NCBI GenBank assembly: GCA_964473905.1
Contig: CAYYQY010000003.1
Location: 20,546 to 84,545 of the forward strand
Source: an uncultured Dehalococcoidales bacterium
GTDB taxonomy: Bacteria; Chloroflexota; Dehalococcoidia; Dehalococcoidales; CAYYQY01
DNA length: 64,000 bases
Direction of reading: 5' to 3'
Below are positions 26,663-59,146 of the stretch, piece after piece. The notes beneath the pieces are model-generated. The model saw only the letters and a program-made list of their open reading frames with translations. It was not told the DNA's origin and searched no databases. Both the position numbers and the translations under genes were made by a program. How positions within the stretch are numbered: position 1 is the first letter of the stretch; every line of letters begins with the position of its first letter.

Positions 26663-27834
26663 GCGGTTTTAAACTGATAAGTACTGATGCCGGGAGCGGA
26701 GCGCGTGCCGGTGAAATACGTACCCTGCATGGTACGGTGCCGACGCCGGCATTTATGCCGGTAGGCAGCCAGGCTACGGTAAAGGCGGTATCGCCCGACG
26801 AGCTTGAGGATATCGGGGCAGGCATGATACTGGCCAATACCTATCATCTGTATTTGAGGCCGGGGATGGATGTGGTTGAAAAAATGGGCGGGTTACATAA
26901 GTTCATGGGCTGGGATAGAGCCATCCTGACTGATAGTGGCGGTTATCAGATATTCAGTCTGGCCAGGCTACGGAAAATAAACGATGACGGCGTCGTTTTC
27001 CGTTCGCATATTGATGGCAGCGAGCACTTTATTACCCCTGAGCTTGACATAAAGCTACAGGAGGCACTCGGTGCCGATATTATTATGGCGCTGGACGAGT
27101 GCCCGGCCAACGATGATAGCCTGGACAAAGTGGCGGAGGCTATGCACCGCACTCACTTGTGGGCAGAGAGATGTCTTAAGGCCAAGAAGCGGAGTGACCA
27201 GGAGCTGTACGCTATTGTGCAGGGGGGCGTATTCCCCGAGCTTCGCCGCCGTTCCGTGGCATATCTTAAGTCACTGGACTTTCCCGGGTACGCCATCGGT
27301 GGCCTGAGCCTGGGCGAACCGAAAAAGGTTACCCTCTCCATTGTTGAAGAGACGGTGAAAATGCTTCCCGAAGCCAGGACACGCTATCTCATGGGGGTGG
27401 GTTCGCCGGAGGATATTGTTGAGGGTGTAGCCAGGGGGTGCGATATATTTGACTGTGCTTTACCCACCAGGGTAGCCCGGAACGGCGCCTTCTTCGCCCG
27501 TGATGGCAGACATAATATCCGAAATGCTGTATATAGAAGGATAGAAGAGCCCATGGTGGATGGTTGTAATTGCTATACCTGCCGACACTTCTCCGCAGCA
27601 TATGTACATCATCTGTTTGCCTGTGAAGAGCTGCTGGGCTACCGGTTGATGACTATTCATAACCTGAGTTTTATGAATAACCTGGTAAGCGAGATAAGAG
27701 CCTCGATATTGAATGGCGGCTTCAAATCTTTCCGGGAAGGGTTTTTAGCGGAATACCGGCCTACTGATGAGCAGGTGCGGCTTAATCAGAAGCAGAAATG
27801 GCTGAAGTCACGCCACTCGGAATATTCGGAATAG
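26659..27834 (+). CDS. tgt: Queuine tRNA-ribosyltransferase (tRNA-guanine transglycosylase)
   Basis: 391 aa. LTDSGGYQ and the zinc site CNCYTCRHFSAAYVHHL. ATGA overlap with the upstream gene. Confidence 0.95.
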   Translation: MSGFKLISTDAGSGARAGEIRTLHGTVPTPAFMPVGSQATVKAVSPDELEDIGAGMILANTYHLYLRPGMDVVEKMGGLHKFMGWDRAILTDSGGYQIFSLARLRKINDDGVVFRSHIDGSEHFITPELDIKLQEALGADIIMALDECPANDDSLDKVAEAMHRTHLWAERCLKAKKRSDQELYAIVQGGVFPELRRRSVAYLKSLDFPGYAIGGLSLGEPKKVTLSIVEETVKMLPEARTRYLMGVGSPEDIVEGVARGCDIFDCALPTRVARNGAFFARDGRHNIRNAVYRRIEEPMVDGCNCYTCRHFSAAYVHHLFACEELLGYRLMTIHNLSFMNNLVSEIRASILNGGFKSFREGFLAEYRPTDEQVRLNQKQKWLKSRHSEYSE

Positions 27835-27870
27835 ACCACTGATAAAAGATGTCCCTGACTCAAAATCTGA

Positions 27871-28104
27871 CTACACGGTAGCGGGTTCTATCTTTACTCC
27901 CTTGGACGTTGCCCAGTCCAGGACACCGTTAATGGCAGTGCTATCCCCCTCAAGCTCGACTTCTATCCAGCCGCCGGACTCGCTCATGTTGGCCTGCCGG
28001 ATGTTGGTTTGCAAGGCAAAATCCTGCCCTATGCTATAGATAATCGGTTCAGCAGCCACTTCATCGTTAAAGGTCATTATTATACGCAATTTACTCATTT
28101 TCAT
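27871..28104 (-). CDS. Stand-alone NIL-domain protein (MetN C-terminal-like ligand-binding fold)
   Basis: 77 aa. Similar by eye to the N-terminal half of the NIL-ferredoxin at 33511-33921 (..EPIIYSIGQDF.. versus ..RPIVYRLVKDF..). Last gene of the operon. Confidence 0.6.
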   Translation of the reverse strand: MKMSKLRIIMTFNDEVAAEPIIYSIGQDFALQTNIRQANMSESGGWIEVELEGDSTAINGVLDWATSKGVKIEPATV

Positions 28105-28110
28105 TCCCTC

Positions 28111-29085
28111 TTACGATATAATAATAGCGCTTTCCAGACGCTTAACCGTAGCTTCGGCCTCTTCTACCATAGTATCGATAATCTCTCTAACAGAGGGGAT
28201 ATTGTGTATCAGTCCGACGGTCTCACCGGCGGAGATGACGCCTTTATTGATGTTGCCCTCCTCCAGTGCCTGTTTACCTCTGAGCCCGGTTATCGTGGGC
28301 AGCAGATCTTCCAGCGTAGCCCCCTTTTCCTCCATGCGCAGTACGTTGAGCGATAGCTCTGTTCTCAGCACCCGCTCCGGATTATTAAAGGTGCGGTTTA
28401 TCATTATCGTGTCTTTTTCCGTAGCCTGAATTAGCCACTCCTTGATTCTGGGATGAGCTGTGCATTCCTGGCTGGCCAGAAAGCGGGTGCCCAGCATCAC
28501 CCCATCGGCACCCAGGGCCAGGGCAGCCGTGAGGCCTTTACCATCGGCGATGCCCCCACCGGCAATAACCGGGATTTTAACTGCAGCTGCCGCCAGCGGA
28601 ATCTGGACGAGGGATGTAATTTCTTCCATGCCGGGGTTGCCGCCCGCCTCAAAGCCGACGATGGTTACCGCATCTACCCCCAATCTTTCCGCAGTAAGGG
28701 CATCCTTCACCCGGGCGCACTTGTGCATTGTAGTTGCCCCGGCGTCCTTAAGCATCTTGATGTAAGGTTGCGGATTTCTGCCGGAGGTCTCAATTATGCT
28801 GACGCCGGCCTCTATCGCGATAGCCAGGTATTTTTCATGATGCACGGGTCTGAAAGTTGGCAGAAGGGTAATATTGACGGCGAATGGATTGGCGGTCAGG
28901 CTCTGTGTCTTTTTTATACCCTCCCGAAAATCTTCCGCGGTGCCATAATTGGCTGAGGAAAGAATACCCAGACCGCCGGCATTGGATACGGCCGCTGCCA
29001 GTTCGGAATTGGCGAGCCACAGCATGGCTCCCTGGATTATCGGGTATTTTATACCGAGCATTTCCGTTATTCTGGTTTTAAACAT
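28111..29085 (-). CDS. FMN-dependent TIM-barrel oxidoreductase of the COG2070 / nitronate monooxygenase (NPD, FabK-like) family
   Basis: 324 aa. LGIKYPIIQGAMLWLANSELAAAVSNAGGLGIL N-terminal signature, and IPVIAGGGIADG. Confidence 0.8.
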   Translation of the reverse strand: MFKTRITEMLGIKYPIIQGAMLWLANSELAAAVSNAGGLGILSSANYGTAEDFREGIKKTQSLTANPFAVNITLLPTFRPVHHEKYLAIAIEAGVSIIETSGRNPQPYIKMLKDAGATTMHKCARVKDALTAERLGVDAVTIVGFEAGGNPGMEEITSLVQIPLAAAAVKIPVIAGGGIADGKGLTAALALGADGVMLGTRFLASQECTAHPRIKEWLIQATEKDTIMINRTFNNPERVLRTELSLNVLRMEEKGATLEDLLPTITGLRGKQALEEGNINKGVISAGETVGLIHNIPSVREIIDTMVEEAEATVKRLESAIIIS

Positions 29086-29092
29086 ATATCTC

Positions 29093-29368
29093 TTAACCTC
29101 CGCCTATCAGTGGTATAAGATCAATCTCATCCCCGTCCTTAACGGGCATATCCAGCTCGTCGGGAAAGGTATCTTTTTCATTCAAAAAGATACAGACCCA
29201 CTCCAGCAGTTCACCCTTACTATCAAACAGTTCGTTTTTAATGTCAGGCAGCTTTTCGGTAAGCTCCTGGATGCATTTACTCACGGTGTTACCGTTTACT
29301 TCCACTATTGAACATTCGTTGGGTAGTCCCTTTAGAAAATAGCGGTTGATATTAATCTTGGTACTCAT
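29093..29368 (-). CDS. ThiS/MoaD-family ubiquitin-like sulfur-carrier protein
   Basis: 91 aa ending ...DEIDLIPLIGGG (C-terminal Gly-Gly). Overlaps the upstream E1-like gene by 17 nt. Confidence 0.75.
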   Translation of the reverse strand: MSTKININRYFLKGLPNECSIVEVNGNTVSKCIQELTEKLPDIKNELFDSKGELLEWVCIFLNEKDTFPDELDMPVKDGDEIDLIPLIGGG

Positions 29369-30125
29369 TGTTCGCTTCCATCCCCAGTTGTTTACAGTGC
29401 TTGCAACCGGGGTCTCTTTTTACGGTAAACTCTCTGAATTGTAAATTAAGCCCATCGTAGACCAGTAATTTATTGGTCAGCAGTTTGCCGGTACCCAGGA
29501 TATACTTTATTACCTCCGTAGCCTGGATACTACCCATGATGGCTGCTGTAACGCCAACTATAGGTATTGTTGCGGCGGGTATAGCGCCGCGATATATGCA
29601 TTTCAGGCAGGCAGTTTTACCTGGGATTATGGTCGTAGCCCGGCCTTCAAAGCCATATACAGCGCCATGGAAGAAGGGTATGCCTTTGGATACGGCGGTC
29701 TTATTGAGAATAAATCTTGTCTTCAGGTTATCAACGGCATCCACTATTAAGTCACAACCATCCGTAAGCCCGAAGATATTGTCTTCGGTAATAAGCTCAT
29801 CCCTGGCTTCTACTGTCACCTCCGGGTTAATCAGGTTCAGCTTATCTACGGCTAAGTCAACCTTCATCCTGCCTATATCCTTATCCCGGTACAGTACCTG
29901 TCTATTAAGGTTGCTGAGCTCCACGCGGCCGCTATCAACCACTCGCAGCGTACCCACTCCCGCTGCTGCCAGGTAGGTGCATACTGGCGCGCCAATCCCG
30001 CCGGCGCCGGCGATGAAGACCTTGGCCCGCTTGAGTTTCTCCTGGCCGGCCTCACCGAAGCCTTCAATCATAATCTGACGGCTGTATCTTTCCCGTTCAC
30101 TTCCGGTAAGCATAGCGTTATTCAC
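29352..30125 (-). CDS. ThiF/MoeB/HesA-family adenylyltransferase (E1-like)
   Basis: 257 aa. RYSRQIMIEGFG, nucleotide loop IAGAGGIGAP, and two CxxC pairs (CLKC, CKHC) as in the zinc site of MoeB/ThiF. No rhodanese domain. Confidence 0.85.
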   Translation of the reverse strand: MNNAMLTGSERERYSRQIMIEGFGEAGQEKLKRAKVFIAGAGGIGAPVCTYLAAAGVGTLRVVDSGRVELSNLNRQVLYRDKDIGRMKVDLAVDKLNLINPEVTVEARDELITEDNIFGLTDGCDLIVDAVDNLKTRFILNKTAVSKGIPFFHGAVYGFEGRATTIIPGKTACLKCIYRGAIPAATIPIVGVTAAIMGSIQATEVIKYILGTGKLLTNKLLVYDGLNLQFREFTVKRDPGCKHCKQLGMEANNEYQD

Positions 30126-30136
30126 TCCCCGGTGCC

Positions 30137-30937
30137 TTAATCACTCTGGCTTATCTTTCCAGTTAATACCCTTGAAGGGTGACTGTATATGTTCATTCTG
30201 CTGCCGCGGACAAAACCGATTAGCGTTATACCCCGGTCGGCGGCTATCTTTACCCCCAGGGTAGTCGGTGCCGATTTGGATATGAGCACGGGGATATTTC
30301 TTCTGGCTATCTTGAGTATTATCTCCGAGGATACGCGGCCACTCGTAATCATTATACGGTCGTCCGTCGTTAAGCCGATGGCAAGACACTCGCCGATTAC
30401 CTTGTCAATGGCATTATGCCGGCCGATGTCCTCGCTGAACAGGAGAATATTTTGTCTGTCGCTCAGGGCGGCACTATGGACGCCGCCTGTTTTCCTGAAT
30501 ATCCGTGAGCGCTGCACAAAGTCATCCATAATTGTATAAATCTCAGCCGGTGATATTTGTAAGCCGGACTTTATCTCTCCGGGACTGTCGCCATTGGCAC
30601 TGGCGTAAGGCTGGAGAGTCCTGCCGCTGCTGGATGCAATAAGCTGAGGGGATGATAAATCAGGGGCTATAACCATGTTATTTCTGCTGGTTATACGGGC
30701 AAAGCCTCGCTCACTATCGATAGTGATACTATCTATATCGTCTTTACTTTTTATAAGCCCCTCTGAAACGAGGAAACCCAAGGCCAGATAGTCCAGTTTG
30801 GCCGGGGAACACAGCAGTGTTACGAGCTCCCGGTTGTCAAGTATTATGGTAATGGGTAGCTCTACGGTTACCGTATCCTTGAAGTCGCTCCTTCGCTGCT
30901 CGGTGATGCGTACTATGGGGACTTCATCTATCTCCAT
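30137..30937 (-). CDS. fdhD: FdhD/NarQ-family protein lacking the canonical Cys-pair loop
   Basis: 266 aa. LDYLALGFLVSEGLI, TGGVHSAAL and EDIGRHNAIDK match the FdhD family. Where E. coli FdhD has GRTGCGVCG, this protein has GRTLQPYAS. Confidence 0.8.
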   Translation of the reverse strand: MEIDEVPIVRITEQRRSDFKDTVTVELPITIILDNRELVTLLCSPAKLDYLALGFLVSEGLIKSKDDIDSITIDSERGFARITSRNNMVIAPDLSSPQLIASSSGRTLQPYASANGDSPGEIKSGLQISPAEIYTIMDDFVQRSRIFRKTGGVHSAALSDRQNILLFSEDIGRHNAIDKVIGECLAIGLTTDDRIMITSGRVSSEIILKIARRNIPVLISKSAPTTLGVKIAADRGITLIGFVRGSRMNIYSHPSRVLTGKISQSD

Positions 30938-31034
30938 AATTATATTTCCTGACCGGTTTGCCGGTTTTGGTCAGCCGAAAAAAGCTCTAATGTACAACTG
31001 TACTTATACTGCACTATATCTATTTAATTGTCTA

Positions 31035-31820
31035 TTACTTTCCAGACAGTTTATTTATGGCTACTTCGGCCGCTCTTTTGCCGGAAAGCAGCATACCGCC
31101 AAAAACGGGGCCCATTCTGGGTGAACCAAAAACGGCGTTGGCTGCCATACCGCTTACTATCAAGCCGGGATATGCTTCTTTAGTGTTATCCAGTATCTCT
31201 CTCTCCCCGATTTCAGCCCACATTGATTTTTCGCCGGCGATTTTGCCCGTTTCCAGTAATAGCTTGGCGCCGAGTTTTTCGCTCACTATATGACATACTT
31301 CGCTGGCATGTCCCGTGGCATCTATCACCGCCTTGGCGCGTATTGAGAGCGGGTCTACATGCAGTTTGGCTATTTGCGTGGCGGTCCAGTTTAAAACGAG
31401 GCCGGTTACCCGGTCATTCTCCCGTATCATTACGTCCTCAACGCTTATCAGGTTAAATATCTTCGCACCGGCTCTTATCGTGCGGTAGCATATAGCCGAG
31501 ACAGCTTCCAGGGCGTCCGCAGTGAAGTAGCCCGGTTGATACAACTTGGCGGCAATGTCAAACTCGTCCAGAATATGCTTACCCTCCTGCTGTACCACGA
31601 TATGATTGAACATCATACCGCCGCCGGGCATACCCCCACCGACACGAAGTTGCCTTTCAAAAATAACGGTTTTTAAGCCGGCTTTAGCCAGGAAATACGC
31701 GGCAGTCATACCGGACGGGCCGGCGCCGACTATAGCCACGTCAACCTGCATGGCGTCTAAGAAGTCTTTCATAAAGGTCTCAACAATTGCCTTGGATATG
31801 GTAATCTCGTCTAGTTCCAT
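31035..31820 (-). CDS. thi4: Thi4-type thiamine thiazole synthase
   Basis: 261 aa. [20 protein letters not shown] dinucleotide fold, [20 protein letters not shown], and a C-terminal [21 protein letters not shown] pattern typical of archaeal/eukaryotic Thi4. Confidence 0.85.
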
Positions 31821-31845
31821 GGTTCCCCTTTCCTAAAGCCTTTTC

Positions 31846-32763
31846 CTAGGCTATTTCTAACATTCTATCTACGGCGTGTTTTGCCCTGAGACGTATATCA
31901 GCCGGTACTTTAATCTCGTATTTCATGTCCTTTAGCGCCAGTAGCACCTTCTCCAGAGTGATAAGTTTCATGTCTGGGCAAATGGCCTGCACCGAGGCGG
32001 GAATAAATATTTTATCCGGGTTCTCCTTTATTAGCCGGTATATTATACCAATCTCCGTGCCGATGATTATTTCTCGCGCTTCTGTTTCCCTGGCAAACCG
32101 GCACATGCCGCTGGTGCTTAGGGCCTCATCGGCGAGGGCGATAACTTCGGGCTTGCACTCCGGATGCACAATTACTTTGGCTCGCGGATTTGCTAGTTTC
32201 GCCTTCAAAATATCTTCGGGGCTAATACGGGCATGGGTAGGGCAGAAACCGGGCCAGAGGGAAATATTCTTTCTACCGGTCTTTAAGGCGACATACTGCC
32301 CCAGGTACTGGTCGGGAATAAATAGAATCTCCCTGTCGCCCAGGCTTTTTACAATATTCACCGCATTCGCCGACGTACAGCAGATGTCTGACTCGGCTTT
32401 AACCTCTGCTGACGAGTTCACGTAGCAGACAACGGTGGCTACCGGCATCTCTGCTTTCCGTTTATTTAAGCTGTCGGCGGTAATCATATCTGCCATGGGG
32501 CAACCGGAACGGGCATCGGGCAGCAGGACTTTTTTGTCCGGGCACAGGATGGAAGCTGTCTCTGCCATAAAACGGACACCGCAGAAAACAATCGTCTCCG
32601 CATTGGTTCTGGCTGCCCGCTGGCTTAGCTCCAGTGAATCACCCACCAGGTCGGCTATATCCTGCACTTCGCCCGGCTGATAGTTGTGGGCAAGTATGAT
32701 GGCATGCCTCCGCTCTTTGAGGTAGAGTATATTTTCCTTAATTTCGCTAATATTCAAAACCAT
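31846..32763 (-). CDS. nadA: Quinolinate synthase
   Basis: 305 aa. ILAHNYQPGEVQDIAD, FCGVRFMAET and VIVHPEC are typical NadA blocks. Confidence 0.9.
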   Translation of the reverse strand: MVLNISEIKENILYLKERRHAIILAHNYQPGEVQDIADLVGDSLELSQRAARTNAETIVFCGVRFMAETASILCPDKKVLLPDARSGCPMADMITADSLNKRKAEMPVATVVCYVNSSAEVKAESDICCTSANAVNIVKSLGDREILFIPDQYLGQYVALKTGRKNISLWPGFCPTHARISPEDILKAKLANPRAKVIVHPECKPEVIALADEALSTSGMCRFARETEAREIIIGTEIGIIYRLIKENPDKIFIPASVQAICPDMKLITLEKVLLALKDMKYEIKVPADIRLRAKHAVDRMLEIA

Positions 32764-32783
32764 GATATTTAAACCCTGCCGTT

Positions 32784-33506
32784 TCAGGTCCCGGATATTA
32801 CGACATCTCCCCAGACTCCCATACTGTCATCCTTGATTATGACGGTACCGGTTATACCGTCAATACACCTCGCAAATCCTATCCCTTTAGGGATATCACC
32901 GGACTCCTTAACCATGTTGCCTGTGGCCGTAGCCACGGCATCGGCCAGGCTGGCGGATGCGGAAATAACTATTACGGCATCCGCCCGACCGTAGCTCAGC
33001 GAGTGGCCTACCGTACCGGAAGAAGTACAGATGCCCAGAGGAGTGTCCCGGCCTTCAATTTCCAGTGCTATTTTCCCGCTTAAAGGAGAGTTACCGGCAT
33101 AGATGCCGATTAGCCGCTTTCGCGAGGATTTAAGATATATATCCCCGCCGTTCTCAATAATTACCTCCTCTGCTGAGTTAATCAGTCTACTACCGACATA
33201 CTCGGCTATTGCTCCGGCTACCGAGGCCATAGGGCCTACTCCAGCTTTTCTTGATGCATCCATCATCGGTCTCAGGATAGGAGCTATGTCTCCGGTACCC
33301 GGCAGCGGTTCCAGTGAAGTTAGAAACGGCGGATGCCGTTCTATGTAGCTCTCCAGGGTGTCACGGTATTTTATTACCAGATTCAGCGCCTCTTCCTCCA
33401 GGTTAGCGGAGGCACGGATATATAAATCAGTCTCCTTTATCACCACGTTGAAACTGGTTAAATCCTCGCCTTTAATCCAGTGACGGTAGGTCTTGGGTTC
33501 GTACAT
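32784..33506 (-). CDS. UPF0280 / COG2122 ApbE-like protein (family of Methanosarcina MA1715)
   Basis: 240 aa. MYEPKTYRHWIKGEDLTSFNVVIKETDLYIRA is a UPF0280-type N-terminus. Sits directly after the COG1900 and NIL-ferredoxin genes. Confidence 0.7.
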   Translation of the reverse strand: MYEPKTYRHWIKGEDLTSFNVVIKETDLYIRASANLEEEALNLVIKYRDTLESYIERHPPFLTSLEPLPGTGDIAPILRPMMDASRKAGVGPMASVAGAIAEYVGSRLINSAEEVIIENGGDIYLKSSRKRLIGIYAGNSPLSGKIALEIEGRDTPLGICTSSGTVGHSLSYGRADAVIVISASASLADAVATATGNMVKESGDIPKGIGFARCIDGITGTVIIKDDSMGVWGDVVISGT

Positions 33507-33510
33507 CAGG

Positions 33511-33921
33511 TTAGAAGTGTAGCTCCATAGCCCGTGGCGGGCAGGCCGTTATGCACTGTCCGCAGGCTATGCACTTATCATCTTCAAAGTTTATTTTTTT
33601 GGTCACCGGGTCAAGGACAAAGGCTCCGGTGGGACATATGGTAACACAGGCGCCACAGTGGGTACATCTGTCTTCGTTACGAACAACGTCCTGGCTCAGC
33701 GATTGAATCTTGATTCCGCTTTTGGTCAGGTAATTGATACCTTTATCGTAGTCCTCTTGCCTGCCTCTTATCTCCAGTACCATCAAGCCTTCCTCTTCCG
33801 GGGTGAAAAAGGCCTTCAGGATATTGAATTCAAGGTCAAAGTCCTTGACGAGCCGGTATACTATGGGCCGGTCTACGATGCGTTTCGGGAAACGGAGGAC
33901 TATCTTCTTTGCTACAGCCAT
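33511..33921 (-). CDS. NIL domain fused to a 2x[4Fe-4S] ferredoxin (family of MA1822)
   Basis: 136 aa. N-terminal NIL-like domain, then CTHCGACVTICP and CIACGQCITACP. Confidence 0.8.
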   Translation of the reverse strand: MAVAKKIVLRFPKRIVDRPIVYRLVKDFDLEFNILKAFFTPEEEGLMVLEIRGRQEDYDKGINYLTKSGIKIQSLSQDVVRNEDRCTHCGACVTICPTGAFVLDPVTKKINFEDDKCIACGQCITACPPRAMELHF

Positions 33922-33939
33922 GGCTAATGCCTTTGTGTT

Positions 33940-35148
33940 TTATTCTTCTATAGGGCGTTCGTTAAGAGGTTTACAGCTTATGCCTGACTCAATGCCGGGT
34001 AGCGGTGCTACCGGTTCACTGAGCAGGAACTCTCCGTTCTCTATCCAGGTCTTAAGCGTGCCGGCTATTTCCAGCGCCCGGGAGTAGCTGGATAGAGAAG
34101 CCGTGGGCACGTCTTTACCCTGGATATTTACCCTACCGCTTCTAAGCTGAGCGTAGCTTACCTCAGCTACTATATCCGGCTTCAAATTGGGGTAAGCATC
34201 TGAGTAATCTATAACCGCGGCCATGATTTCGCTATCGCTTACCGCTGTGTACCTGAGGATTTCTTCAGAGAGTATAGGTATAGGTACGCCGATACCCACG
34301 GTTAAAGTGCAGCCATAGCCCAGCATGCTGGTGCCCACCAGCCAGCGCGGGTTCATATGCTTCAGGTCACCGATTACGGCCAGGGTGCCGGCCCCTCTAC
34401 TGGGTACGCCGTTATCGGTTCGCGGTGCGTTCGGGCTGTGCTGGGTGCCCTGCCAGGCAACATAACCTGTCCCGCCGCCCAGAAATATCTTGGTGCCGAT
34501 ACCGATAGTCTTATAATAGGGGTCATTCAGCAGCGGTGAGAGCTGCCCGGCGGTAGCGTAATTGATGTTTCCCAGATTAGGCTTAAGTACCCCCAGATAG
34601 GTATATATTGTCCGCTTGGATAGGTTGGCCGCCACATTATAGTTCTGGTAGGCATTTCTTATATTGAAAAGCACCGCTTCATTCAGGTCCTTGATATTAA
34701 TCAGGGTTTCAAGACGCTTTCTGGGATAGCAATCGGTGCCGTAAGCGGTGGCTACCAGGCTGATATCCTTACCGGCTACCAGCTCCTCAATCACGTGGCC
34801 GCCACCATAGTTGAATTCACCGGGATGGACTCTATTCCTGGGGTCATCATCGGGCAGCGCGCCGGCGCCGACAAATAAATCGGCTGCGGCCAATCCGGTG
34901 TAGGCTGGTACATCGTTGAGATATACCCTGCCGCCGCCGAGCTTGATTCTCGGTTTTGAGTGGCCGATGTTGAAGTAGGCACCTGACGAGCACATAGGAC
35001 CAAGGGTGCCCGTGGTAACCACGTCAACTTCCCGGGCTACCTTTTGTAGCCCCTTCTCTCTGACCAGGTCAATTATTTCCTCGGCAGTGACGACGACTGC
35101 CTTGCCCAGTTTTATCTTTTCGTTTATTTCGCCAATCGTTCTTGTCAT
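33940..35148 (-). CDS. COG1900 (DUF39) homocysteine-biosynthesis protein (family of MA1821), without CBS domains
   Basis: 402 aa. TIGEINEKIKLGKAVVVTAEEI N-terminus and overall COG1900 pattern. Genomic pairing with the NIL-ferredoxin. Confidence 0.75.
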   Translation of the reverse strand: MTRTIGEINEKIKLGKAVVVTAEEIIDLVREKGLQKVAREVDVVTTGTLGPMCSSGAYFNIGHSKPRIKLGGGRVYLNDVPAYTGLAAADLFVGAGALPDDDPRNRVHPGEFNYGGGHVIEELVAGKDISLVATAYGTDCYPRKRLETLINIKDLNEAVLFNIRNAYQNYNVAANLSKRTIYTYLGVLKPNLGNINYATAGQLSPLLNDPYYKTIGIGTKIFLGGGTGYVAWQGTQHSPNAPRTDNGVPSRGAGTLAVIGDLKHMNPRWLVGTSMLGYGCTLTVGIGVPIPILSEEILRYTAVSDSEIMAAVIDYSDAYPNLKPDIVAEVSYAQLRSGRVNIQGKDVPTASLSSYSRALEIAGTLKTWIENGEFLLSEPVAPLPGIESGISCKPLNERPIEE

Positions 35149-35156
35149 TGTACTAG

Positions 35157-35185
35157 ATGATAGTATGTAAGCCTGTAATTGTCAA
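35157..35185 (-). promoter_or_regulatory. Sigma-70-type promoter of the COG1900 sulfur operon, placed so the mRNA would be leaderless or nearly so
   Basis: The minus strand reads TTGACA (35185-35180), a 17-nt spacer, TATCAT (35162-35157), then 8 nt (ctagtaca) and the ATG at 35148. No Shine-Dalgarno. Confidence 0.55.
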
Positions 35186-35340
35186 TTTGGCCATCTTGCC
35201 AGTATCCTGCTTATACGGCATCTATAATATTAGCTGTGACATGTGGCCTGCCGATAAAGGTAAATGAAAAAGATAATAATCTATAGATTGAGACATGAAG
35301 AGTATTAGACAGGAACACCTAAGGCCATCAACTTTTTGGA

Positions 35341-35766
35341 TTACTCGCCGAATGCAGTAACCAAAGGGTGCTGTTCCCGGTACTCAATAAGCTCAATCAT
35401 GACGCCAAAGGTATCCTTGGGGTGGAAGGTAGCCGTCCGGGCATCGCCAATCTGCTCGCCGCCGATTTGCCGGATACCCTTTGCCTTCATTTCGGTTATG
35501 GCCGCATCCAGGTCGGGCACCTTGAAGGATATCATGGATACACCCTCTCCCTTCTGCTCCAGGAGCCGCTCGGCATTGCCGCCCGGCGTTAGCGGTGCAC
35601 ACAGGTTAATACAAGATGGTAAAGGGCCTACGGTTTGCTTAATATCAAAATTCTTGTTATCCCAGGACTGTGAAAACTCAATACCCATTACGTCGCTAAA
35701 AAGCCCTATCGCTTTCGCCAGGTCTCTTACAAAAATGGTAATGTGGTCAATCCTATCGATTTTCAC
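35341..35766 (-). CDS. VOC/glyoxalase-family protein (methylmalonyl-CoA epimerase-like)
   Basis: 141 aa. IDHITIFVRDLAKAIGLFSDVMG VOC motif. GTG start behind GGGAGG. Confidence 0.7.
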   Translation of the reverse strand: MKIDRIDHITIFVRDLAKAIGLFSDVMGIEFSQSWDNKNFDIKQTVGPLPSCINLCAPLTPGGNAERLLEQKGEGVSMISFKVPDLDAAITEMKAKGIRQIGGEQIGDARTATFHPKDTFGVMIELIEYREQHPLVTAFGE

Positions 35767-35840
35767 GGTGTCACCTCCCGAATTATTCTATAGCTACAGG
35801 CGCATCATTGTCAATTTGACGTACCCGAGACGGGCGACGG

Positions 35841-35870
35841 TTGCCGAACAGTCTCCATATGAGCTATAAT
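35841..35870 (+). promoter_or_regulatory. Sigma-70-type promoter of aspS
   Basis: TTGCCG (35841-35846), an 18-nt spacer, then TATAAT (35865-35870). The track's ORF start at 35841 is this -35 box. Confidence 0.45.
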
Positions 35871-35900
35871 TTAAAGCTGATACTTTTTCTGGAGGTAGTC

Positions 35901-37694
35901 TTGCTGAGAACACATAGCTGCGGTGAGCTGCGGAAGGAACATACCGGCACCAGGGTAACTCTGGCCGGTTGGGTAGACCGCCGCCGTGATCACGGGGGCC
36001 TCATATTTATTGATCTCCGGGGGCGGGACGGTATAGTCCAGGTGGTCTATAACCCGGAAGTATCAGGCATATGCCACGAAACTGCCGGCGAGATGCGCAG
36101 CGAGTACGTGGTACAGGTAACCGGTGAGGTGGCGCCCCGGCCGAGGGGAACGGAAAATCCAAGATTGCCTACGGGTGAAATAGAGGTTATTGCAGGGGAA
36201 ACCAGAATATTAAATCCGTCAATAACCCCGCCTTTTTACATCAACGAGGACATTGAGATAGAAGAGAGCCTGCGTCTTAAGTATCGCTACCTTGACATAC
36301 GGCGGGCGCGGATGAAAAACAATATATTTCTCCGACACCGGGTAGTGAAATATGTCCGTGATTTCCTGGATGCAAGAGGGTTTATTGAGGTAGAAACGCC
36401 CATCCTCATAAAAAGCACGCCGGAAGGCGCACGTGATTACCTGGTGCCAAGCCGCGTCCATCCAGGCGAGTTCTATGCTCTGCCCCAGTCGCCGCAGCAG
36501 CTTAAGCAACTGCTCATGGTGGCCGGAGTGGAGAAATATTTTCAGATAGCCAGGTGCTTCCGAGATGAAGACCTCCGCGCCGATCGCCAGCCCGAGTTTA
36601 CCCAGCTTGACATGGAAATGAGTTTCATTGAAGAGGAAGATATCATCAGCCTGATGGAAGAGATGTTCACGGCCCTTGTAACTGAAGTAAAGCCTGAAAT
36701 GAGGATGATAAAACCATTCCCTCGCCTGAAATATGCCGAGGCGATGGAGCGTTACGGGACTGATAAGCCGGACCTGCGTTTCGGCATGGAAATAAAGGGT
36801 GTATCAGACATTGTCGGTGATTCTGATTTTTCCATATTCCGTAATGCAATAAAAGGCGGTGGAGTAGTCAAAGGCATATGTGCGCCGGGCTGCGCCGGCT
36901 ATACACGGCATCAACTGGAGGAATTGAACCAGATAGTAAGAAGTTTCGGTGCCGAAGGCGTTATAAATATTTCTATAGGAGATAATGCTTCGGGCATAGA
37001 TGATTTGAGCCTTGATATGCTCCGGTCTGTTGCTATCAAATACCTCACCCTGGAGCAGGTAAAGGCAATAGCGGGGCGGCTGGCAGCGACCCCCGGAGAC
37101 CTGTTGCTCATAATGGCGGGTAAGCCGGAAATCGTCGCCATCGCATTGGGAGAGCTGCGGCTGGAGATGGGACGCCGGCTCAACCTGGCTGCTGGCGATT
37201 CGCTTGCCTTTGCTTTTATACTGGACTTTCCGTTATTCAAGTGGGATGAGAAGATGGGGTACTGGGAGACGATGCATCACCCCTTCACCGCGCCCAAGGA
37301 TGAGGATGCCTGTCTGGTGGATACCGAGCCTGGTAAGATGCGGGGTAAACACTACGACATTGTATGTAACGGCTACGAAATAGCAGGCGGTAGCCTGAGA
37401 ATTTACTCCAGCGAGATGCAGAGAAAGGTGTTCAGAATGCTGGGCTATAAAGATGCGGATATTGATGACCGCTTCGGTCATTTACTGGAGGCCTTTGATT
37501 ACGGGGCGCCGCCACACGGTGGTATTGCCTCCGGTATTGACCGCTTGGTCATGCTGCTCGCCGGAGAGCAAAACATCAGGGAGGTTATTGCTTTCCCCAA
37601 GACGCAGAGTGCTATTGATTTAACGCTGAATGCGCCTTCGGCGGTTGGCGATGAGCAGCTTAGAGAGCTGCACTTGAGAATAACAGAGGACTAG
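35901..37694 (+). CDS. aspS: Aspartate--tRNA ligase
   Basis: Class II motif FRDEDLRADRQPEFTQLD, and LRTHSCGELR N-terminus. I place the start at TTG 35901 (GGAGG at 35891-35895, 5-nt spacing) rather than the track's 35841. Confidence 0.93.
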   Translation: MLRTHSCGELRKEHTGTRVTLAGWVDRRRDHGGLIFIDLRGRDGIVQVVYNPEVSGICHETAGEMRSEYVVQVTGEVAPRPRGTENPRLPTGEIEVIAGETRILNPSITPPFYINEDIEIEESLRLKYRYLDIRRARMKNNIFLRHRVVKYVRDFLDARGFIEVETPILIKSTPEGARDYLVPSRVHPGEFYALPQSPQQLKQLLMVAGVEKYFQIARCFRDEDLRADRQPEFTQLDMEMSFIEEEDIISLMEEMFTALVTEVKPEMRMIKPFPRLKYAEAMERYGTDKPDLRFGMEIKGVSDIVGDSDFSIFRNAIKGGGVVKGICAPGCAGYTRHQLEELNQIVRSFGAEGVINISIGDNASGIDDLSLDMLRSVAIKYLTLEQVKAIAGRLAATPGDLLLIMAGKPEIVAIALGELRLEMGRRLNLAAGDSLAFAFILDFPLFKWDEKMGYWETMHHPFTAPKDEDACLVDTEPGKMRGKHYDIVCNGYEIAGGSLRIYSSEMQRKVFRMLGYKDADIDDRFGHLLEAFDYGAPPHGGIASGIDRLVMLLAGEQNIREVIAFPKTQSAIDLTLNAPSAVGDEQLRELHLRITED

Positions 37695-40021: not shown

Positions 40022-42055
40022 ATGGACGTAGTCAAGACCGTCTGTAATATGTGTGATGTTAGGTGCGGTATAGATGCCTATGTTGAGAACGGGCAGATAG
40101 TAAAAATTGATGGTATGCCGGAGCACCCGCATAACTCCCTCTGTGTTAAGGCATATGCTATTCCGGAGCTTGTTCATTCCAAAGACCGGTTGACCAGCCC
40201 CATGCTTAAGGTAAACGGAGAGTTCAAGGATATTACCTGGGACGAGGCGTTTACTGTTATCGCTGATAATTTGAACAGAGTTAAGGAGAAGTACGGGCCG
40301 CAGGCGCTCAATGTCCATGTTGGTAATGCCTATATCGGTACCCAGACAGAGAAAATAGTAAGGCGTTTTAGCGATCTTTTTGGCACGCCCAACTACTCTA
40401 CGGGTGGTTCGTACTGCTTTCTGGCCAGTACTCTGGGGCACATGATAACATGCGGGGCACACGTGCTCCCGGATTTTGAGGGTAATCCCAGGTGCATGGT
40501 TATGTGGGCTAGCAACCGTACTCAGAGCAGTCCTCCCTACGCCGAGGTGATTAGCCGCTGGGTAAGTGATAAAACCAAGTTAATAGTGATCGATCCCAGA
40601 ATTACCAAACGCGCTAAAGAGGCGGATATATATGCTCAAATCAGGCCGGGAACGGATTGTGCTCTGGCACTCGGTATGCTGAATGTTATTATCGCTGAAG
40701 AGCTTTATGATAAACAGTTTGTAGAGCAGTGGACTGTTGGCTTTGAACAGTTAGCTCAACATGTAAAGACATACTCGCCCGAGAAGGTTGAGACGATAAC
40801 GTGGGTACCGGCAGGCACTATCCGGGATATGGCCCGCCTGTACGCCACGAGTAAGCCGGCCTGCATCTCGCTGGGTATTCCCACCAATCACAGCACTAAC
40901 GGGGTTCAAACCGTCAGGGCTATTACCATACTGATGGCTATTACGGGTAACATTGATGTAGCCGGTGGCGATATTATTACACCATCACTGTGGCAGTCAA
41001 GCATCCGGGTTAAAGGCAGCATACCTGATTTAAGCACTTCGCTCGGTGCTGACTACCCTATATTCAGGAGATATGCGGTAGAGTCAACAGCTTCGCCTCT
41101 TACCGAGACAATACTCAGCGAAGTACCTTACCCGGTAAAAGCCTTGATTTTTGCTGGCTGTAACCCACTAATGACCATGCCGAATACTAACAAGGTAAGA
41201 CGTGCCTTTGAAAAGCTGGATTTCATGGCGGTTATAGACATATTTATGACGGATACGGCCAGGATGGCTGACCTGGTACTGCCTGGAACGAGCTTTGCGG
41301 AAAGGGAGGACTTAAGGCACTGGCGTGCGGATGGGCTAAGCCTGGTAGTGGCGACCAATAAGGTGGTGGAACCGCCTGGAAACTGCATGGAAGACTGGAA
41401 AATATGGGCGGCGCTGGCCGAAAAGATGGGTTATGGTGAGTATTTTCCCTGGAAGACGACCGTAGATCTGCTTGAATACCTGCTTAAACCGTCCGGTATT
41501 ACGCTGGAGCAGCTCAGGGCAAACCCGGGTGGTGTCTACTATGCCGGGAAAAAATATAAAAAATATCTGGAGGAAGGATTTGCTACACCGTCTAAAAAGG
41601 TAGAGCTGTATTCCGAACTGATGGAGCAGCACGGGTATGAACCACTACCATCATTTAAAGAGCCGGTGGAAAGTCCGGTAAGCCAGCCTGATTTAGCCGC
41701 GAGCTATCCTTTAATAATGATTACCGGTACCCGGACAGCGGGTTATCTCCACTCTGAGTACCGCAATTTGCCCAGCCTGCGTAGGCTTATGCCGGAGCCG
41801 ATAATTGAAATAAATACGGATACGGCGCATAATCTTAATATAACGGATGGAGACCGGGTTAAAGTTGAATCAAGAAGGGGAAGCGTTGAGTTAAAGGCCA
41901 GAGTGCATAATGATATACATCCTGAGGTGGTATCCATGCAGCACGGGTGGAGTGAGGCTAACGCTAATGTGTTGACCAATGATGAGGTCCGTGACCCGGT
42001 ATCGGGCTTCCCCGCGTTTAAGGGTGTTTTGTGCAGAGTGGTTAAGGTAGGCTAA
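40022..42055 (+). CDS. Cytoplasmic molybdopterin (Mo/W-bisPGD) oxidoreductase, stand-alone catalytic subunit, substrate unknown
   Basis: 677 aa. N-terminal [4Fe-4S] motif CNMCDVRC...(x24)...C (Cys8, Cys11, Cys15, Cys41). No twin-arginine signal. The candidate metal ligand is Cys132 in GGSYCFLAS. AGGAGG lies upstream. Confidence 0.85.
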   Translation: MDVVKTVCNMCDVRCGIDAYVENGQIVKIDGMPEHPHNSLCVKAYAIPELVHSKDRLTSPMLKVNGEFKDITWDEAFTVIADNLNRVKEKYGPQALNVHVGNAYIGTQTEKIVRRFSDLFGTPNYSTGGSYCFLASTLGHMITCGAHVLPDFEGNPRCMVMWASNRTQSSPPYAEVISRWVSDKTKLIVIDPRITKRAKEADIYAQIRPGTDCALALGMLNVIIAEELYDKQFVEQWTVGFEQLAQHVKTYSPEKVETITWVPAGTIRDMARLYATSKPACISLGIPTNHSTNGVQTVRAITILMAITGNIDVAGGDIITPSLWQSSIRVKGSIPDLSTSLGADYPIFRRYAVESTASPLTETILSEVPYPVKALIFAGCNPLMTMPNTNKVRRAFEKLDFMAVIDIFMTDTARMADLVLPGTSFAEREDLRHWRADGLSLVVATNKVVEPPGNCMEDWKIWAALAEKMGYGEYFPWKTTVDLLEYLLKPSGITLEQLRANPGGVYYAGKKYKKYLEEGFATPSKKVELYSELMEQHGYEPLPSFKEPVESPVSQPDLAASYPLIMITGTRTAGYLHSEYRNLPSLRRLMPEPIIEINTDTAHNLNITDGDRVKVESRRGSVELKARVHNDIHPEVVSMQHGWSEANANVLTNDEVRDPVSGFPAFKGVLCRVVKVG

Positions 42056-44082: not shown

Positions 44083-45164
44083 GTTGTCCTCCGGGCTTTT
44101 GATAGTACTTTTACGGCGCCATTTTCTATGGTTACGTCATCCTCTATCCTGACTCCTCCCCAACCGGGAAGATAGATACCGGGTTCAATGGTAAAAACCA
44201 TACCATTGGTAAGGCATTCGTCGGCACCCGGGCCCAACCGCGGGAATTCATGGCAGGCAAGACCTATACCGTGACCCAGGCTGTGGCCGAAGGCTTCGCC
44301 GTAGCCTGCCTGTTCAATGACCCTTCTTGACAGGCTGTCAGCCTCTTCGCCGGTAAGTCCCTCTTCTATTTTTATGATAGCTTCTTCTTGAGCACGGCGT
44401 ACAGTGTCATATACCATGGCATAGGTGTCATCGGCAGGGCTGATACAGAAAGTACGGCTGATATCGCTCGAATATCCTTCATATCTGGCACCCATATCTA
44501 TGATAACGGGTTCGCCTCCACCGATAGCGCGCGATGACGGCTGGGCGTGGGGCAGGGCGGCGTTGGGACCGGAAGCTACGATAACGTTAAAAGGCATGCT
44601 CTCGCTACCATTCTCTCGGAGAAACATCTCTATAGACCAGGCCAGTTCCTTTTCTGTCATACCGGCGTGAATTATATCTTCAATATATTCTGTAGCGCTG
44701 ACCGTTATTGCCACCGCTTTCTTGATGAGCTCAATTTCCCCGGCTTCCTTGATAGCCCGGAGTGATTCAACCATTCCTTCACGGGGGATAAATTCAAGTC
44801 CGGGTCTGGCCCTATTAAGTATATCAGTAAACTGGTGGTAGGTGGTAACGGTAAAGTATTCCGCTTCAAAGCCGAGCCTGTTGATGTTTAGCCCGGATAC
44901 AAGCCCGGGCAGCCAGCTATCGGGGCTCCCGGCTATTTTTATTATCTCGTAATCAGGAGCCTCTACCTTTACCTGTTCTATATAGCGGAAATCGGTAGCC
45001 AGAAATTTATCCTGAGGGGTAATCAGCAAAAAACCTGCCGAACCACTGAAGCCCGACAGATAATACCTGTTTTCGGGTTGAGATACCAGTAGGGCGTCTA
45101 TTTCCTGGTCTACCAGCTTACGGCGTAGTTTTTCAACACGACTGGCTGTCTGCAAGGTCGTCAT
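44079..45164 (-). CDS. Xaa-Pro aminopeptidase (M24B family)
   Basis: 361 aa. DMGARYEGYSSDISRT, HSLGHGIGLACHE and FTIEPGIY metal-ligand blocks. Confidence 0.88.
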   Translation of the reverse strand: MTTLQTASRVEKLRRKLVDQEIDALLVSQPENRYYLSGFSGSAGFLLITPQDKFLATDFRYIEQVKVEAPDYEIIKIAGSPDSWLPGLVSGLNINRLGFEAEYFTVTTYHQFTDILNRARPGLEFIPREGMVESLRAIKEAGEIELIKKAVAITVSATEYIEDIIHAGMTEKELAWSIEMFLRENGSESMPFNVIVASGPNAALPHAQPSSRAIGGGEPVIIDMGARYEGYSSDISRTFCISPADDTYAMVYDTVRRAQEEAIIKIEEGLTGEEADSLSRRVIEQAGYGEAFGHSLGHGIGLACHEFPRLGPGADECLTNGMVFTIEPGIYLPGWGGVRIEDDVTIENGAVKVLSKARRTT

Positions 45165-47793: not shown

Positions 47794-47860
47794 TTCTCTA
47801 CCCCCTTTCTTGAGTTATGCTGATAGTAAACAGCACTCACCAGTATTTGTTTCTTGGACA

Positions 47861-49393: not shown

Positions 49394-49410
49394 TTCAACT
49401 CACCTCCTTT

Positions 49411-50646: not shown

Positions 50647-50882
50647 ACCTTATCCTCCTCATATCTTGAGAAGTGGAAGCGGAGTAGCATGTACTGGCAA
50701 AATACGAATACGTGATACTATCTCTTCCTTATCCATGTCATTCTACTTGCCGGAAAATCTGTAAGCCTAGCCCGGACAAAAAATTCCGAGTGTCATGCCC
50801 GGTATCGTAAGTATAAGGTCTGAATATATACAGGCTGCCGTATTACCGGACAGCATAAATGACATAGCTCTCGCCGTTAATA

Positions 50883-50919
50883 GAAGAGTAAGGTTCTTTT
50901 TTATAGAACCTTACTCTTC
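50883..50919 (-). terminator. Perfect 15-bp hairpin just downstream of the CCG-protein gene, copy 2 (possible terminator separating the two modules)
   Basis: GAAGAGTAAGGTTCT (50883-50897), 7-nt loop, AGAACCTTACTCTTC (50905-50919). Starts 10 nt after the stop codon at 50930. No clear U-tract. Confidence 0.35.
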
Positions 50920-50929
50920 GCTATCTTTA

Positions 50930-52171: not shown

Positions 52172-52191
52172 TTAGACTCCTCCTTTTGAGA

Positions 52192-53715: not shown

Positions 53716-53716
53716 C

Positions 53717-58949: not shown

Positions 58950-59038
<89 letters not shown>

Positions 59039-59055
59039 GTAAGATAATATTAAAC

Positions 59056-59146
59056 TGGCGGAGAGGGTGGGATTCGAACCCACGCTCCGCTGTAGGCGGA
59101 GACCGCTTTTCGAGAGCGGCACCATGAACCACTCGGACACCTCTCC
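59056..59146 (-). tRNA. tRNA-Ser (anticodon CGA), CCA encoded
   Basis: Acceptor GGAGAGG/CCTCTCC, anticodon stem CCGCT/AGCGG with loop CTCGAAA, long variable arm CTCCGC-CTACA-GCGGAG, and the same T-arm and 3' end as the neighbouring tRNA-Ser. An extended -10 (TGGTATAAT on the minus strand, 59158-59166) lies just upstream. Confidence 0.9.

Follow-up and report, generated by a model that had tools for sequence, protein, structure and literature searches.

A predicted ten-gene operon of a Dehalococcoidales bacterium joins the COG1900 homocysteine genes to NadA, Thi4, FdhD-like and E1/sulfur-carrier genes as one variant of a shuffled sulfur cluster

The COG1900 enzyme, now named L-ASST, is the only methionine route in many anaerobes, including organohalide-respiring Dehalococcoidia and methanogens, and together with a NIL-ferredoxin small subunit and a COG2122 protein it makes up a genetically defined homocysteine pathway (PMC5764234; PMC4045070). 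Known examples are MA1821/MA1822/MA1715 of Methanosarcina acetivorans, DvMF_1464/0262/0044 of Desulfovibrio vulgaris and DET0921-0919 of Dehalococcoides. COG2122 has been tied to growth at low sulfide (PMC5764234), and neither the sulfur species used by the homocysteine enzyme nor the origin of its electrons has yet been settled (PMC12068725, 2025). Here, these three families were found at the head of a ten-gene cluster (27871-35148, minus strand) in a 64,000-nucleotide stretch of DNA, called the window below, from an uncultured Dehalococcoidales bacterium (assembly GCA_964473905.1, contig CAYYQY010000003.1, positions 20,546 to 84,545). Comparison with relatives, whose loci are given by L numbers, revealed that the cluster is a variable, co-directional sulfur supra-operon of Dehalococcoidia, of which the window holds one rich variant.

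The first three genes belong to the genetically defined homocysteine families, as an initial annotation of the window had proposed (PMC5764234; PMC12068725), and, as in the known L-ASST systems, all three are present and full length. The COG1900 gene (33940-35148; 402 aa) encodes a complete COG1900/HcyBio domain (PF01837, E 3e-152; residues 17-376, profile positions 1-349 of 349), a family for which an exhaustive search gave 1018 representatives at E<=1e-3. In M. acetivorans, COG1900a has two conserved cysteines, the essential Cys54 and Cys131 (PMC12068725); the window protein has Cys53 (GPMCSSGAY) and Cys140 (GTDCYPRK), which are invariant in seven relatives and correspond to the M. acetivorans pair by position only. 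Unlike the archaeal enzymes, it has no C-terminal CBS domain. The small subunit follows after 18 nt (33511-33921; 136 aa; MA1822 type), with a NIL domain (9e-15), matches to Fer4 families and two CxxCxxCxxxC motifs for [4Fe-4S] clusters (Cys 86/89/92/96 and 117/120/123/127), and after a further 4 nt comes a COG2122/ApbE-like protein of the MA1715/DvMF_0044 type (32784-33506; 240 aa; NF003323, 302.6 bits against a cutoff of 271; precomputed match to PF27030, AbpE_bact). The contiguity of the trio is thus real in the window, but it is not new, having already been noted for DET0921:DET0919 in Dehalococcoides (PMC5764234). In the window, unlike the known systems, seven more operon genes follow the trio, among them those for a PA1024-like flavoprotein and for a second NIL protein that stands alone; the L-ASST papers (PMC5764234, PMC4045070, PMC12068725) mention neither.

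The ten minus-strand open reading frames (ORFs) lie exactly where the initial annotation had placed them, and the ORF list of the window and the profile searches bore out its spacings and every one of its family assignments. From the first gene to the last, the nine intergenic spacings are 18, 4, 20, 25, 97, 11, -17, 7 and 6 nt. A sigma-70-type promoter (TTGACA-17-TATCAT; 35157-35185, minus strand) with 11 of 12 consensus positions precedes COG1900. A consensus scan alone is not significant, since 14 promoter-like sites were found in the region against 10.7 +/- 3.1 in shuffles, and the identity of the promoter is supported instead by its phylogenetic footprint: in an upstream alignment of the window with six syntenic relatives, the sole conserved block was AAATTGACAA, a spacer of 16 or 17 nt and TA(T/C)TAT(C/T)AT, followed after 8-9 nt by the start codon, with a 16-nt insertion at that point in L008. 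This conservation supports the single promoter that had been proposed, and the arrangement as a whole supports a prediction of one transcription unit for the ten genes. The -10 hexamer ends 8 nt ahead of the COG1900 ATG, and the mRNA would therefore be near-leaderless; COG1900 itself has no Shine-Dalgarno sequence, and most downstream genes of the operon have Shine-Dalgarno-like sequences. By consensus scan, no terminator-like site was found in any intergenic gap of the operon, and the longest gap, the 97-nt spacer between Thi4 and FdhD (30938-31034), gave neither an internal promoter nor a terminator. A riboswitch or leader RNA (for S-adenosylmethionine, thiamin pyrophosphate or molybdenum cofactor) was also considered and rejected, with no Rfam match even at E<=1 in the 192-nt upstream region or the 97-nt gap and none to any Rfam family across 27500-36000. 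The operon is flanked by aspS and tgt, a housekeeping neighbourhood; identical operons lie on three metagenomic contigs, and its relatives are metagenome-assembled genomes (MAGs) of Dehalococcoidia/Dehalococcoidales.

Two neighbourhood censuses were made, one centred on COG1900 and the other on the carrier gene. An alignment of seven COG1900 proteins retrieved 80 species-level loci (70-82% identity), nearly all from Dehalococcoidia, with a few labelled Aerophobetes, Omnitrophota, Clostridia or Desulfobacterales. Neighbours on the same strand and within 10 kb were counted by tblastn with the ten window proteins and with neighbour families identified by Pfam. The most frequent were NIL-ferredoxin (53 of the 80 loci), COG2122 (41), CysK-like (30), Rrf2 (23), NifS (18) and Thi4 (17), followed by E1 (12), FdhD (11), CysE (11), NadA, the ubiquitin-like (Ubl) carrier and stand-alone NIL (9 each), MOSC, CutA1 and IscU (6 each), NifU (5), DUF6775 (4) and COG2070 (2). 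In the 31 loci with long flanks, Thi4 occurred 11 times, FdhD 8, NadA 7, E1 3 and COG2070 once. All matches to the ten window families and to CutA1 were on the COG1900 strand, and with the added query families the opposite-strand matches totalled three (NifS, IscU and NifU). At least one of Thi4, NadA, FdhD, E1 and Ubl lay within 10 kb in 27 of the 80 loci, against the roughly 1% that, by our own estimate, would be expected by chance for a single-copy gene in a genome of 1.5-2 Mb.

The order of these genes varies widely. The supra-operon takes up Thi4, NadA, FdhD, MOSC, CysK, CysE, NifS, IscU, E1/Ubl, CutA1 and NIL in many orders and is often headed by an Rrf2 regulator, as in the recurrent large layout Rrf2-CysK-Thi4-CysE-COG1900-NILFdx-COG2122-NifS-MOSC-FdhD-NadA (L040, L045, L067, L074). 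Close variants of the window are trio-NadA-Thi4-MOSC-FdhD-Ubl-COG2070 (L123) and trio-NadA-MOSC-FdhD-E1-Ubl (L116), and L009 and L017 share the layout trio-FdhD-CutA1-E1-Ubl-Ubl-COG2070. The fused ten-gene system described in the initial annotation is therefore not a fixed unit but one of many shuffled variants; the linkage is not unique to this genome, an outcome that the annotation had named as refuting its view, since this arrangement or one much like it occurs in other species. The layout Rrf2-NifS-NifU-ThiS-E1-FdhD-BshCAB-NadA-CysK-COG1900-NILFdx-Thi4-DUF6775 was found in L065, L080 and L082, from MAGs labelled 'bacterium', Clostridia and Aerophobetes, respectively. In these three loci the sulfur cluster comprises 14 genes, among them a Cys-type Thi4 with DUF6775 after it and, between FdhD and NadA, bacillithiol-synthesis genes for BshC, a GT4 glycosyltransferase and a PIG-L deacetylase.

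A first look at relatives had been seeded with the COG2070 protein and gave six neighbourhoods, all of which keep the aspS...tgt frame. Between COG2122 and COG2070 there is nothing in L006 and L008, CutA1-E1-Ubl-Ubl in L004 and L012, FdhD-CutA1-E1-Ubl-Ubl in L009, NadA-Thi4-FdhD-Ubl without E1 in L011, and NadA-Thi4-FdhD-E1-Ubl in the window. A five-gene core of COG1900, NIL-ferredoxin, COG2122, COG2070 and NIL was rejected, because its loci came from this COG2070 seeding; the unbiased COG1900 census has COG2070 in only 2 of its 80 loci. Mutual exclusion of NifS and E1/Ubl after COG2122 was likewise unsupported, with both present in five loci, NifS only in 13 and E1 only in seven. Sequence of 1.5 kb or more beyond COG2122 was available for 32 loci, and in 19 of these no recognised cluster gene comes next.

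The fourth gene of the operon, NadA (31846-32763; 305 aa), is an equivalog-level match to quinolinate synthase, a [4Fe-4S] enzyme (PF02445, 1.7e-124; NF006878, 420.7 bits against 294; TIGR00550, 349.4 against 262.9). Thi4 is also present in eight of the nine COG1900 loci that carry NadA, and a NifS-NadA link has a precedent in the nifS-nadBCA region of Bacillus subtilis. The window Thi4 (31035-31820; 261 aa; TIGR00292, 323.7 bits against 148.3) has His154 at the position of the suicide cysteine, its 'KLHVDP' ('LHVDP') motif aligning with 'SCMDP' of Arabidopsis THI1, and among PDB entries it matches the sulfide-dependent TaThi4 and MjThi4 best (7rk0, E 2.5e-84, and 4y4n). By these features it is predicted to be a catalytic, sulfide-dependent enzyme of the His type (EC 2.4.2.59). 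Since its characterised homologues use free sulfide, the enzyme would need no carrier, and the suggestion that the carrier supplies Thi4 with sulfur is not supported. Fifteen of 19 aligned Thi4 proteins (window, L011 and 17 census loci) are of the His type, and the four Cys-type ones are exactly those with DUF6775 (L041, L065, L080, L082); no DUF6775 gene is present in the window, which thus stands outside the Cys-type Thi4/DUF6775 cluster.

Clustering of Thi4 with ThiF, ThiS, FdhD, HcyBio, NifS, NifU, CysK, CysE and MOSC has been published (Oliveira-Filho et al., ACS Omega 2026, PMC13325395; bioRxiv 10.1101/2025.09.23.678117), and in this respect the initial annotation, which knew of no described system coupling a ThiS/ThiF pair to COG1900 chemistry, is overstated. 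In that study it is Thi4, and not COG1900, to which the carrier is proposed to give sulfur. The COG1900 census recovered the same families; the two data sets differ in that the published one took cysteine-type ('suicide') Thi4 as its seed and gives prominence to DUF6775, whereas Thi4 in the window and in most linked loci is of the His type and those loci have no DUF6775. NadA, COG2070 and NIL are not in the family list of PMC13325395. TRASH proteins are reported to cluster with non-suicide Thi4 in the same work, and in the present loci an ArsP-type permease with an inserted metal-binding domain of the YHS/TRASH kind was seen beside E1, MOSC or NIL (L013:3956-4963, L023:14139-15140, L129 and L144); the L013 operon also contains an Rrf2 regulator.

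The FdhD-like protein (30137-30937; 266 aa; PF02634, 7.6e-76; TIGR00129, 201.6 bits against 140.9) resembles E. coli FdhD/NarQ (PDB 4pde) in its full-length family match above curated cutoffs and in having a formate-dehydrogenase-alpha-like molybdoenzyme nearby. Unlike E. coli FdhD, it has no persulfide-carrying loop cysteine: in the loop alignment it reads SSSG where E. coli has GCGVCG and most relatives have SGCG, and cysteine occurs in it only at positions 43 and 184. The loop cysteine is absent in 16 of 30 linked FdhD-like proteins (loci L009-L171), which have SGGG, SSSG or SGSG instead of SGCG, with a weak excess in loci without NifS (14/21 against 2/9; Fisher p=0.046, ignoring kinship). 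The molybdoenzyme lies outside the operon at a distance of 5 kb (40022-42055, plus strand; 677 aa). It is a molybdenum/tungsten-bis-pyranopterin guanine dinucleotide oxidoreductase with Molybdop_Fe4S4, Molybdopterin and Molydop_binding domains, its best match is TIGR01591 (formate dehydrogenase alpha; 393 bits, below the cutoff of 666), and both the FdhD-like protein and the E1/Ubl pair could plausibly serve it.

The E1 (29352-30125; 257 aa; ThiF, PF00899, 6.9e-75) is of the MoeB/ThiF/UbaA type. Its closest solved relative is E. coli MoeB (1jw9, 1e-46, aligned to its C-terminus), followed by ThiF (2.6e-40); both zinc CxxC pairs are present (Cys173/176 and Cys241/244) and a rhodanese domain is absent. 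All curated scores are below the equivalog cutoffs, namely those for MoeB PRK08762 (256.7/449 bits), UbaA (236/450), PRK05690 (226.6/266) and ThiF (204/275). The start is probably ATG 30113 (253 aa; GGGGAG upstream), 12 nt past GTG 30125 (gene-caller start, identical contig L001). The carrier (29093-29368; 91 aa) overlaps the E1 gene by 17 nt, has the ThiS/MoaD beta-grasp fold (ThiS, PF02597, 7.7e-9) and ends in LIGGG, and thus in Gly-Gly. Its top NCBIfam matches are SAMP1 (44.3 bits against 60) and moaD_arch (43.1 against 49.5), both under cutoff; L172, the one scored homologue linked to a gene for the tungsten enzyme aldehyde:ferredoxin oxidoreductase (AOR), gave the same sub-threshold SAMP1/moaD_arch scores. 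Solved structures did not discriminate the carrier type, the weak matches being split among a MoaD-related protein, CysO-type carriers (4n6e_B, 6e-5; 3dwg_C, 1e-4) and MoaD. Taken together, the pair looks like MoeB with a MoaD/SAMP1-type carrier.

In the carrier-centred census, an alignment of eight carriers retrieved 80 metagenomic loci. The upstream neighbour of the carrier is E1 in 39 of 55 loci, and the commonest recognised downstream neighbours are NIL (15/69) and COG2070 (12/69), most of the remainder being convergent genes that mark the operon end. Anywhere in the 80 loci, CutA1 occurs in 24, FdhD in 19, MOSC in 13 and any component of the trio in 11; where at least 4.5 kb of upstream sequence was available (n=10), the trio was present in four loci and absent from six. 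Carrier homologues follow an AOR gene in L172, with a 4Fe-4S ferredoxin gene in between, and three further carrier neighbours have AFOR domains. These AOR-linked carriers share one large sequence cluster with the E1-, NIL- and COG2070-linked copies from relatives; the window carrier is at most 53% identical to any copy of either kind and clusters apart with two others. In relatives, the gene found most often immediately ahead of E1 is CutA1 (CutA1-E1-Ubl; for example L004:8228-8566, L009, L012 and L017), which encodes a PII-like divalent-cation tolerance protein and is absent from the window. Two diverged carriers (92 and 91 aa) stand in tandem after one E1 in L004:9337-9968, L009:9402-9991, L012:9361-9992, L017 and L098, each about 45-49% identical to the single window carrier, with Cys32 and the GG end invariant. 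In three metagenomic loci (L115:437-3070, L116:7167-9809 and L125:2673-5306) a gene for an 880-aa DUF5695 protein separates the carrier gene from the stand-alone NIL gene and shares their strand.

Several described sulfur relays resemble this pair. Protein-thiocarboxylate routes to cysteine or homocysteine, among them HcyS/HcyF/MetY of Wolinella, use pyridoxal-phosphate (PLP) enzymes and a hydrolase. Like CysO/CysM of Mycobacterium tuberculosis and MetO/MetM/MoeZ/Mec of Streptomyces (GapMind 2026 preprint), the window has an E1 and a GG-ended carrier beside a sulfur amino-acid pathway; unlike them, it has no PLP sulfhydrylase, threonine-synthase-like enzyme, JAMM/Mec hydrolase or rhodanese domain on E1, no PALP or JAMM gene being present in the operon or the window, and the linked enzyme is the unrelated COG1900. 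Further likenesses are to MoeB/MoaD and to archaeal SAMP1/UbaA: the MoeB fold, both CxxC pairs, the beta-grasp carrier with its GG end, best profiles among MoeB, UbaA, SAMP1 and moaD_arch, the AOR and ferredoxin genes that precede carrier homologues, and FdhD, MOSC and a molybdoenzyme nearby in the window and neighbourhoods. AOR-linked MoaD is a described class that is thought to make the pterin of the tungsten cofactor, and adjacency of MoaD and MoeB is rare (Iyer, Burroughs and Aravind 2006, PMC1779556). The Ubl carriers of Thermococcus serve the tungsten cofactor and tRNA thiolation, are redundant and matter mainly at low sulfur (PMC11323500). The window differs from the MoeB/MoaD relay in that no MoaE was seen in the window or neighbourhoods, in its scores below curated cutoffs, in the adjacent, overlapping E1 and carrier genes inside a homocysteine operon, and in the tandem carriers of its relatives.

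The last two genes encode a COG2070/NMO-family FMN oxidoreductase (28111-29085; 324 aa; NMO, PF03060) and the stand-alone NIL protein (27871-28104; 77 aa, no cysteine; PF09383, 3.2e-12), whose start may be two codons later (75 aa; gene callers, identical contig L001). The oxidoreductase matched the PA1024 structure 2gjl over its full length (E 1e-86), ahead of FabK (7l00, 1.9e-64) and NMO (4q4k, 5.5e-27), and it is not FabK (275 bits against a cutoff of 453). PA1024 of P. aeruginosa is an FMN-dependent NADH:quinone oxidoreductase (EC 1.6.5.9; PMC10033279); the window protein belongs to the same NMO/COG2070 TIM-barrel family, and differs in belonging to an anaerobic Dehalococcoidia host and in being encoded between a sulfur carrier and NIL in a homocysteine operon. 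In L006 and L008, COG2122 abuts COG2070-NIL and the carrier is absent, and in L019, L026, L032 and L092 NIL comes directly after COG2122; the stand-alone NIL is a recurrent last gene of both L-ASST and E1-Ubl clusters.

From the gene identities, operon architecture, promoter conservation and recurrent linkage observed here, and with every biochemical step inferred from homologues, each product probably does the usual job of its family, the genes being co-expressed in a sulfide/Fe-S unit with a MoeB/MoaD-like carrier because all of them depend on sulfide or Fe-S supply. COG1900, the NIL-ferredoxin and COG2122 would make homocysteine from aspartate semialdehyde and sulfide, NadA would make quinolinate, and the His-type Thi4 would use NAD, glycine and free sulfide to form the thiamin thiazole. 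The E1 would adenylate the MoaD/SAMP1-like carrier, whose thiocarboxylate would serve molybdopterin or tungstopterin synthesis, and the FdhD-like protein would mature the nearby formate-dehydrogenase-like molybdoenzyme. The weakest step is the assignment of the PA1024-like flavoprotein and the stand-alone NIL as L-ASST accessories, which might feed electrons from NADH into the NIL-ferredoxin and/or, through NIL, allow regulation in response to methionine. Of the alternatives raised in the initial annotation, a co-regulated sulfide regulon together with the mundane MoeB/MoaD assignment was the best supported by both censuses. Several points weigh against this explanation. The carrier falls under the curated cutoff of every MoaD/SAMP model; moaE, moaA, moaC, moeA and mobA are absent from the 64-kb window, and the leading Pfam families of 50 unrecognised carrier-gene neighbours did not include MoaE. 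Where E1-Ubl directly follows COG2122 with no FdhD or MOSC near (L024, L143, L103 and L013), the arrangement fits a link to L-ASST as well as one to the molybdenum cofactor. The FdhD-like protein has no relay cysteine and therefore cannot follow the canonical mechanism unchanged. COG2070 is rare outside the sub-lineage of the window (2 of the 80 COG1900 loci), and the roles of COG2070 and NIL are drawn from neighbourhood and homology. Finally, the census loci are phylogenetically related and their counts are not independent events, and the 97-nt Thi4-FdhD gap could conceal an internal transcript start.

It is improbable that the carrier thiocarboxylate, formed with E1, ATP and free sulfide, is instead the sulfur donor of COG1900 and possibly of the Cys-less FdhD-like protein, with NIL as adaptor and NADH electrons from the flavoprotein. 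Such a role would suit the placing of E1-Ubl within the L-ASST operon, where the window and many relatives have the pair after COG2122 and ahead of (COG2070-)NIL; the abutment of E1-Ubl on COG2122 in L024 (56-nt gap), L143 and L103, where no molybdenum-cofactor gene is near; and the NIL and COG2070 genes downstream of the carrier, NIL being otherwise characteristic of the L-ASST small subunit. The open sulfur species of L-ASST (PMC12068725), the link of COG2122 to low-sulfide growth (PMC5764234), the low-sulfur role of the Thermococcus carriers (PMC11323500), the CysO-type amino-acid sulfur carriers among the closest solved relatives and the excess of Cys-less FdhD in loci without NifS (the p=0.046 above, ignoring phylogeny) point the same way. 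Against this, the trio works genetically without a linked carrier in Desulfovibrio and Methanosarcina; E1 and Ubl accompany only 12 and 9 of the 80 COG1900 loci, the post-COG2122 slot mostly has no recognised gene, and the trio is missing from most long carrier loci; and the hydrolase (JAMM/Mec-type) and PLP sulfhydrylase of known thiocarboxylate amino-acid pathways are absent. Moreover, because NIL follows COG2122 without a carrier in L019, L026, L032 and L092, the carrier-NIL adjacency is explicable by insertion of E1-Ubl into a trio-NIL operon. Nothing, then, points specifically to the carrier as COG1900 donor: E1/Ubl stands most often beside FdhD, MOSC or CutA1, and the carrier family includes AOR-linked MoaD-type genes. 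The fuller version, in which the carrier would be the physiological donor for both COG1900 and the Cys-less FdhD-like protein, NIL would dock the carrier or regulate, and the flavoprotein would give two electrons from NADH, is decidedly improbable. A multi-client system of the SAMP/TtuB kind, in which E1 and carrier would serve the pterin, tRNA thiolation, perhaps Thi4 or L-ASST and maybe protein conjugation, so that the operon position reflects general sulfur trafficking and not one client, also appears unlikely. SAMP-activating UbaA is the second-best NCBIfam match of E1 (236 bits) and SAMP1 the best of the carrier; relatives with one E1 and two diverged carriers resemble systems with one E1 and several Ubls; the Thermococcus Ubls are redundant and multi-purpose (PMC11323500); and the published Thi4 clusters include ThiS/ThiF along with many other sulfur users (PMC13325395). 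Yet neither the window nor the neighbourhoods examined showed a tRNA thiolase (TtuA/NcsA), a JAMM protease or an E2-like gene, all scores are under equivalog cutoffs and only one carrier gene is present in the window. Chance juxtaposition, or a set of independent units lying head-to-tail in a compact genome and meaning nothing beyond its gene density, is very unlikely, the census having largely refuted it. In its favour are the small, gene-dense genomes of Dehalococcoidia, the high variability of the slot after COG2122, the restriction of COG2070 to one sub-lineage and promoter and terminator scans that did not exceed shuffled expectation; but the same families rejoin COG1900 in other orders, also in MAGs that carry the names of other phyla (Aerophobetes L082, Clostridia L080), and nearly always on the same strand, at least one of Thi4, NadA, FdhD, E1 and Ubl is present in 27/80 loci against the estimated 1%, and the window has gaps of 4-25 nt, one 17-nt overlap and a conserved upstream promoter. 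The association of NadA, Thi4, FdhD and E1-Ubl with COG1900 recurs and survives rearrangement, and is therefore not due to chance.

The operon and its relatives yield candidate partners for L-ASST, namely an ATP-dependent carrier pair, a second NIL protein and an NADH flavoprotein. The stand-alone NIL and PA1024-like flavoprotein as L-ASST companions seem to be new, as do the Cys-less FdhD variants and the observation that His-type Thi4 is tightly linked to L-ASST in this class. The His type of Thi4, besides the cysteine type, is thus tightly linked to sulfur-relay genes, and about half of the linked FdhD-like proteins are without the cysteine thought essential for sulfur transfer. Dehalococcoidia gather the sulfur chemistry of cysteine, homocysteine, thiazole, NAD, Fe-S and molybdenum cofactor in one shuffled cluster, which aids the annotation of streamlined genomes. 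If each product does the usual job of its family, the value of the finding lies in tidy annotation and not in new biochemistry; if the carrier were the sulfur donor and the flavoprotein the source of electrons, the operon would encode a thiocarboxylate-dependent, PLP-independent homocysteine synthesis, useful at low sulfide, and would name both the sulfur donor and the electron donor of L-ASST.

Other features of the window were recorded. Within its 64 kb no gene for Rrf2, NifS, CysK, CysE, IscU, MOSC, MoaA, MoaC or MoaE was found. A glyoxalase/VOC-family gene (35341-35766, minus strand; 141 aa) precedes the operon by 192 nt and has a promoter-like site of its own (35814-35785); it occupies the same place in L011 but not in the other relatives. 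Positions 1-3550, with a GC content of 0.55, slightly above the rest of the window, contain no ORF longer than 144 aa; the three ORFs scanned (144, 101 and 80 aa) gave no Pfam match, and neither Rfam matches nor tandem repeats were found. At 46282-55276 (minus strand), six genes form two tandem triplets of FAD_binding_4, FAD_binding_4 and a CCG-domain protein, an apparent duplication; these resemble glycolate-oxidase/lactate-dehydrogenase-like enzymes with an Hdr-type CCG subunit. A gene for an XerC/D-type tyrosine recombinase with Phage_integrase domains is located at 45133-46086 (minus strand), and three tRNA genes lie at 58953-59146 (minus strand) and 60406-60478 (plus strand).

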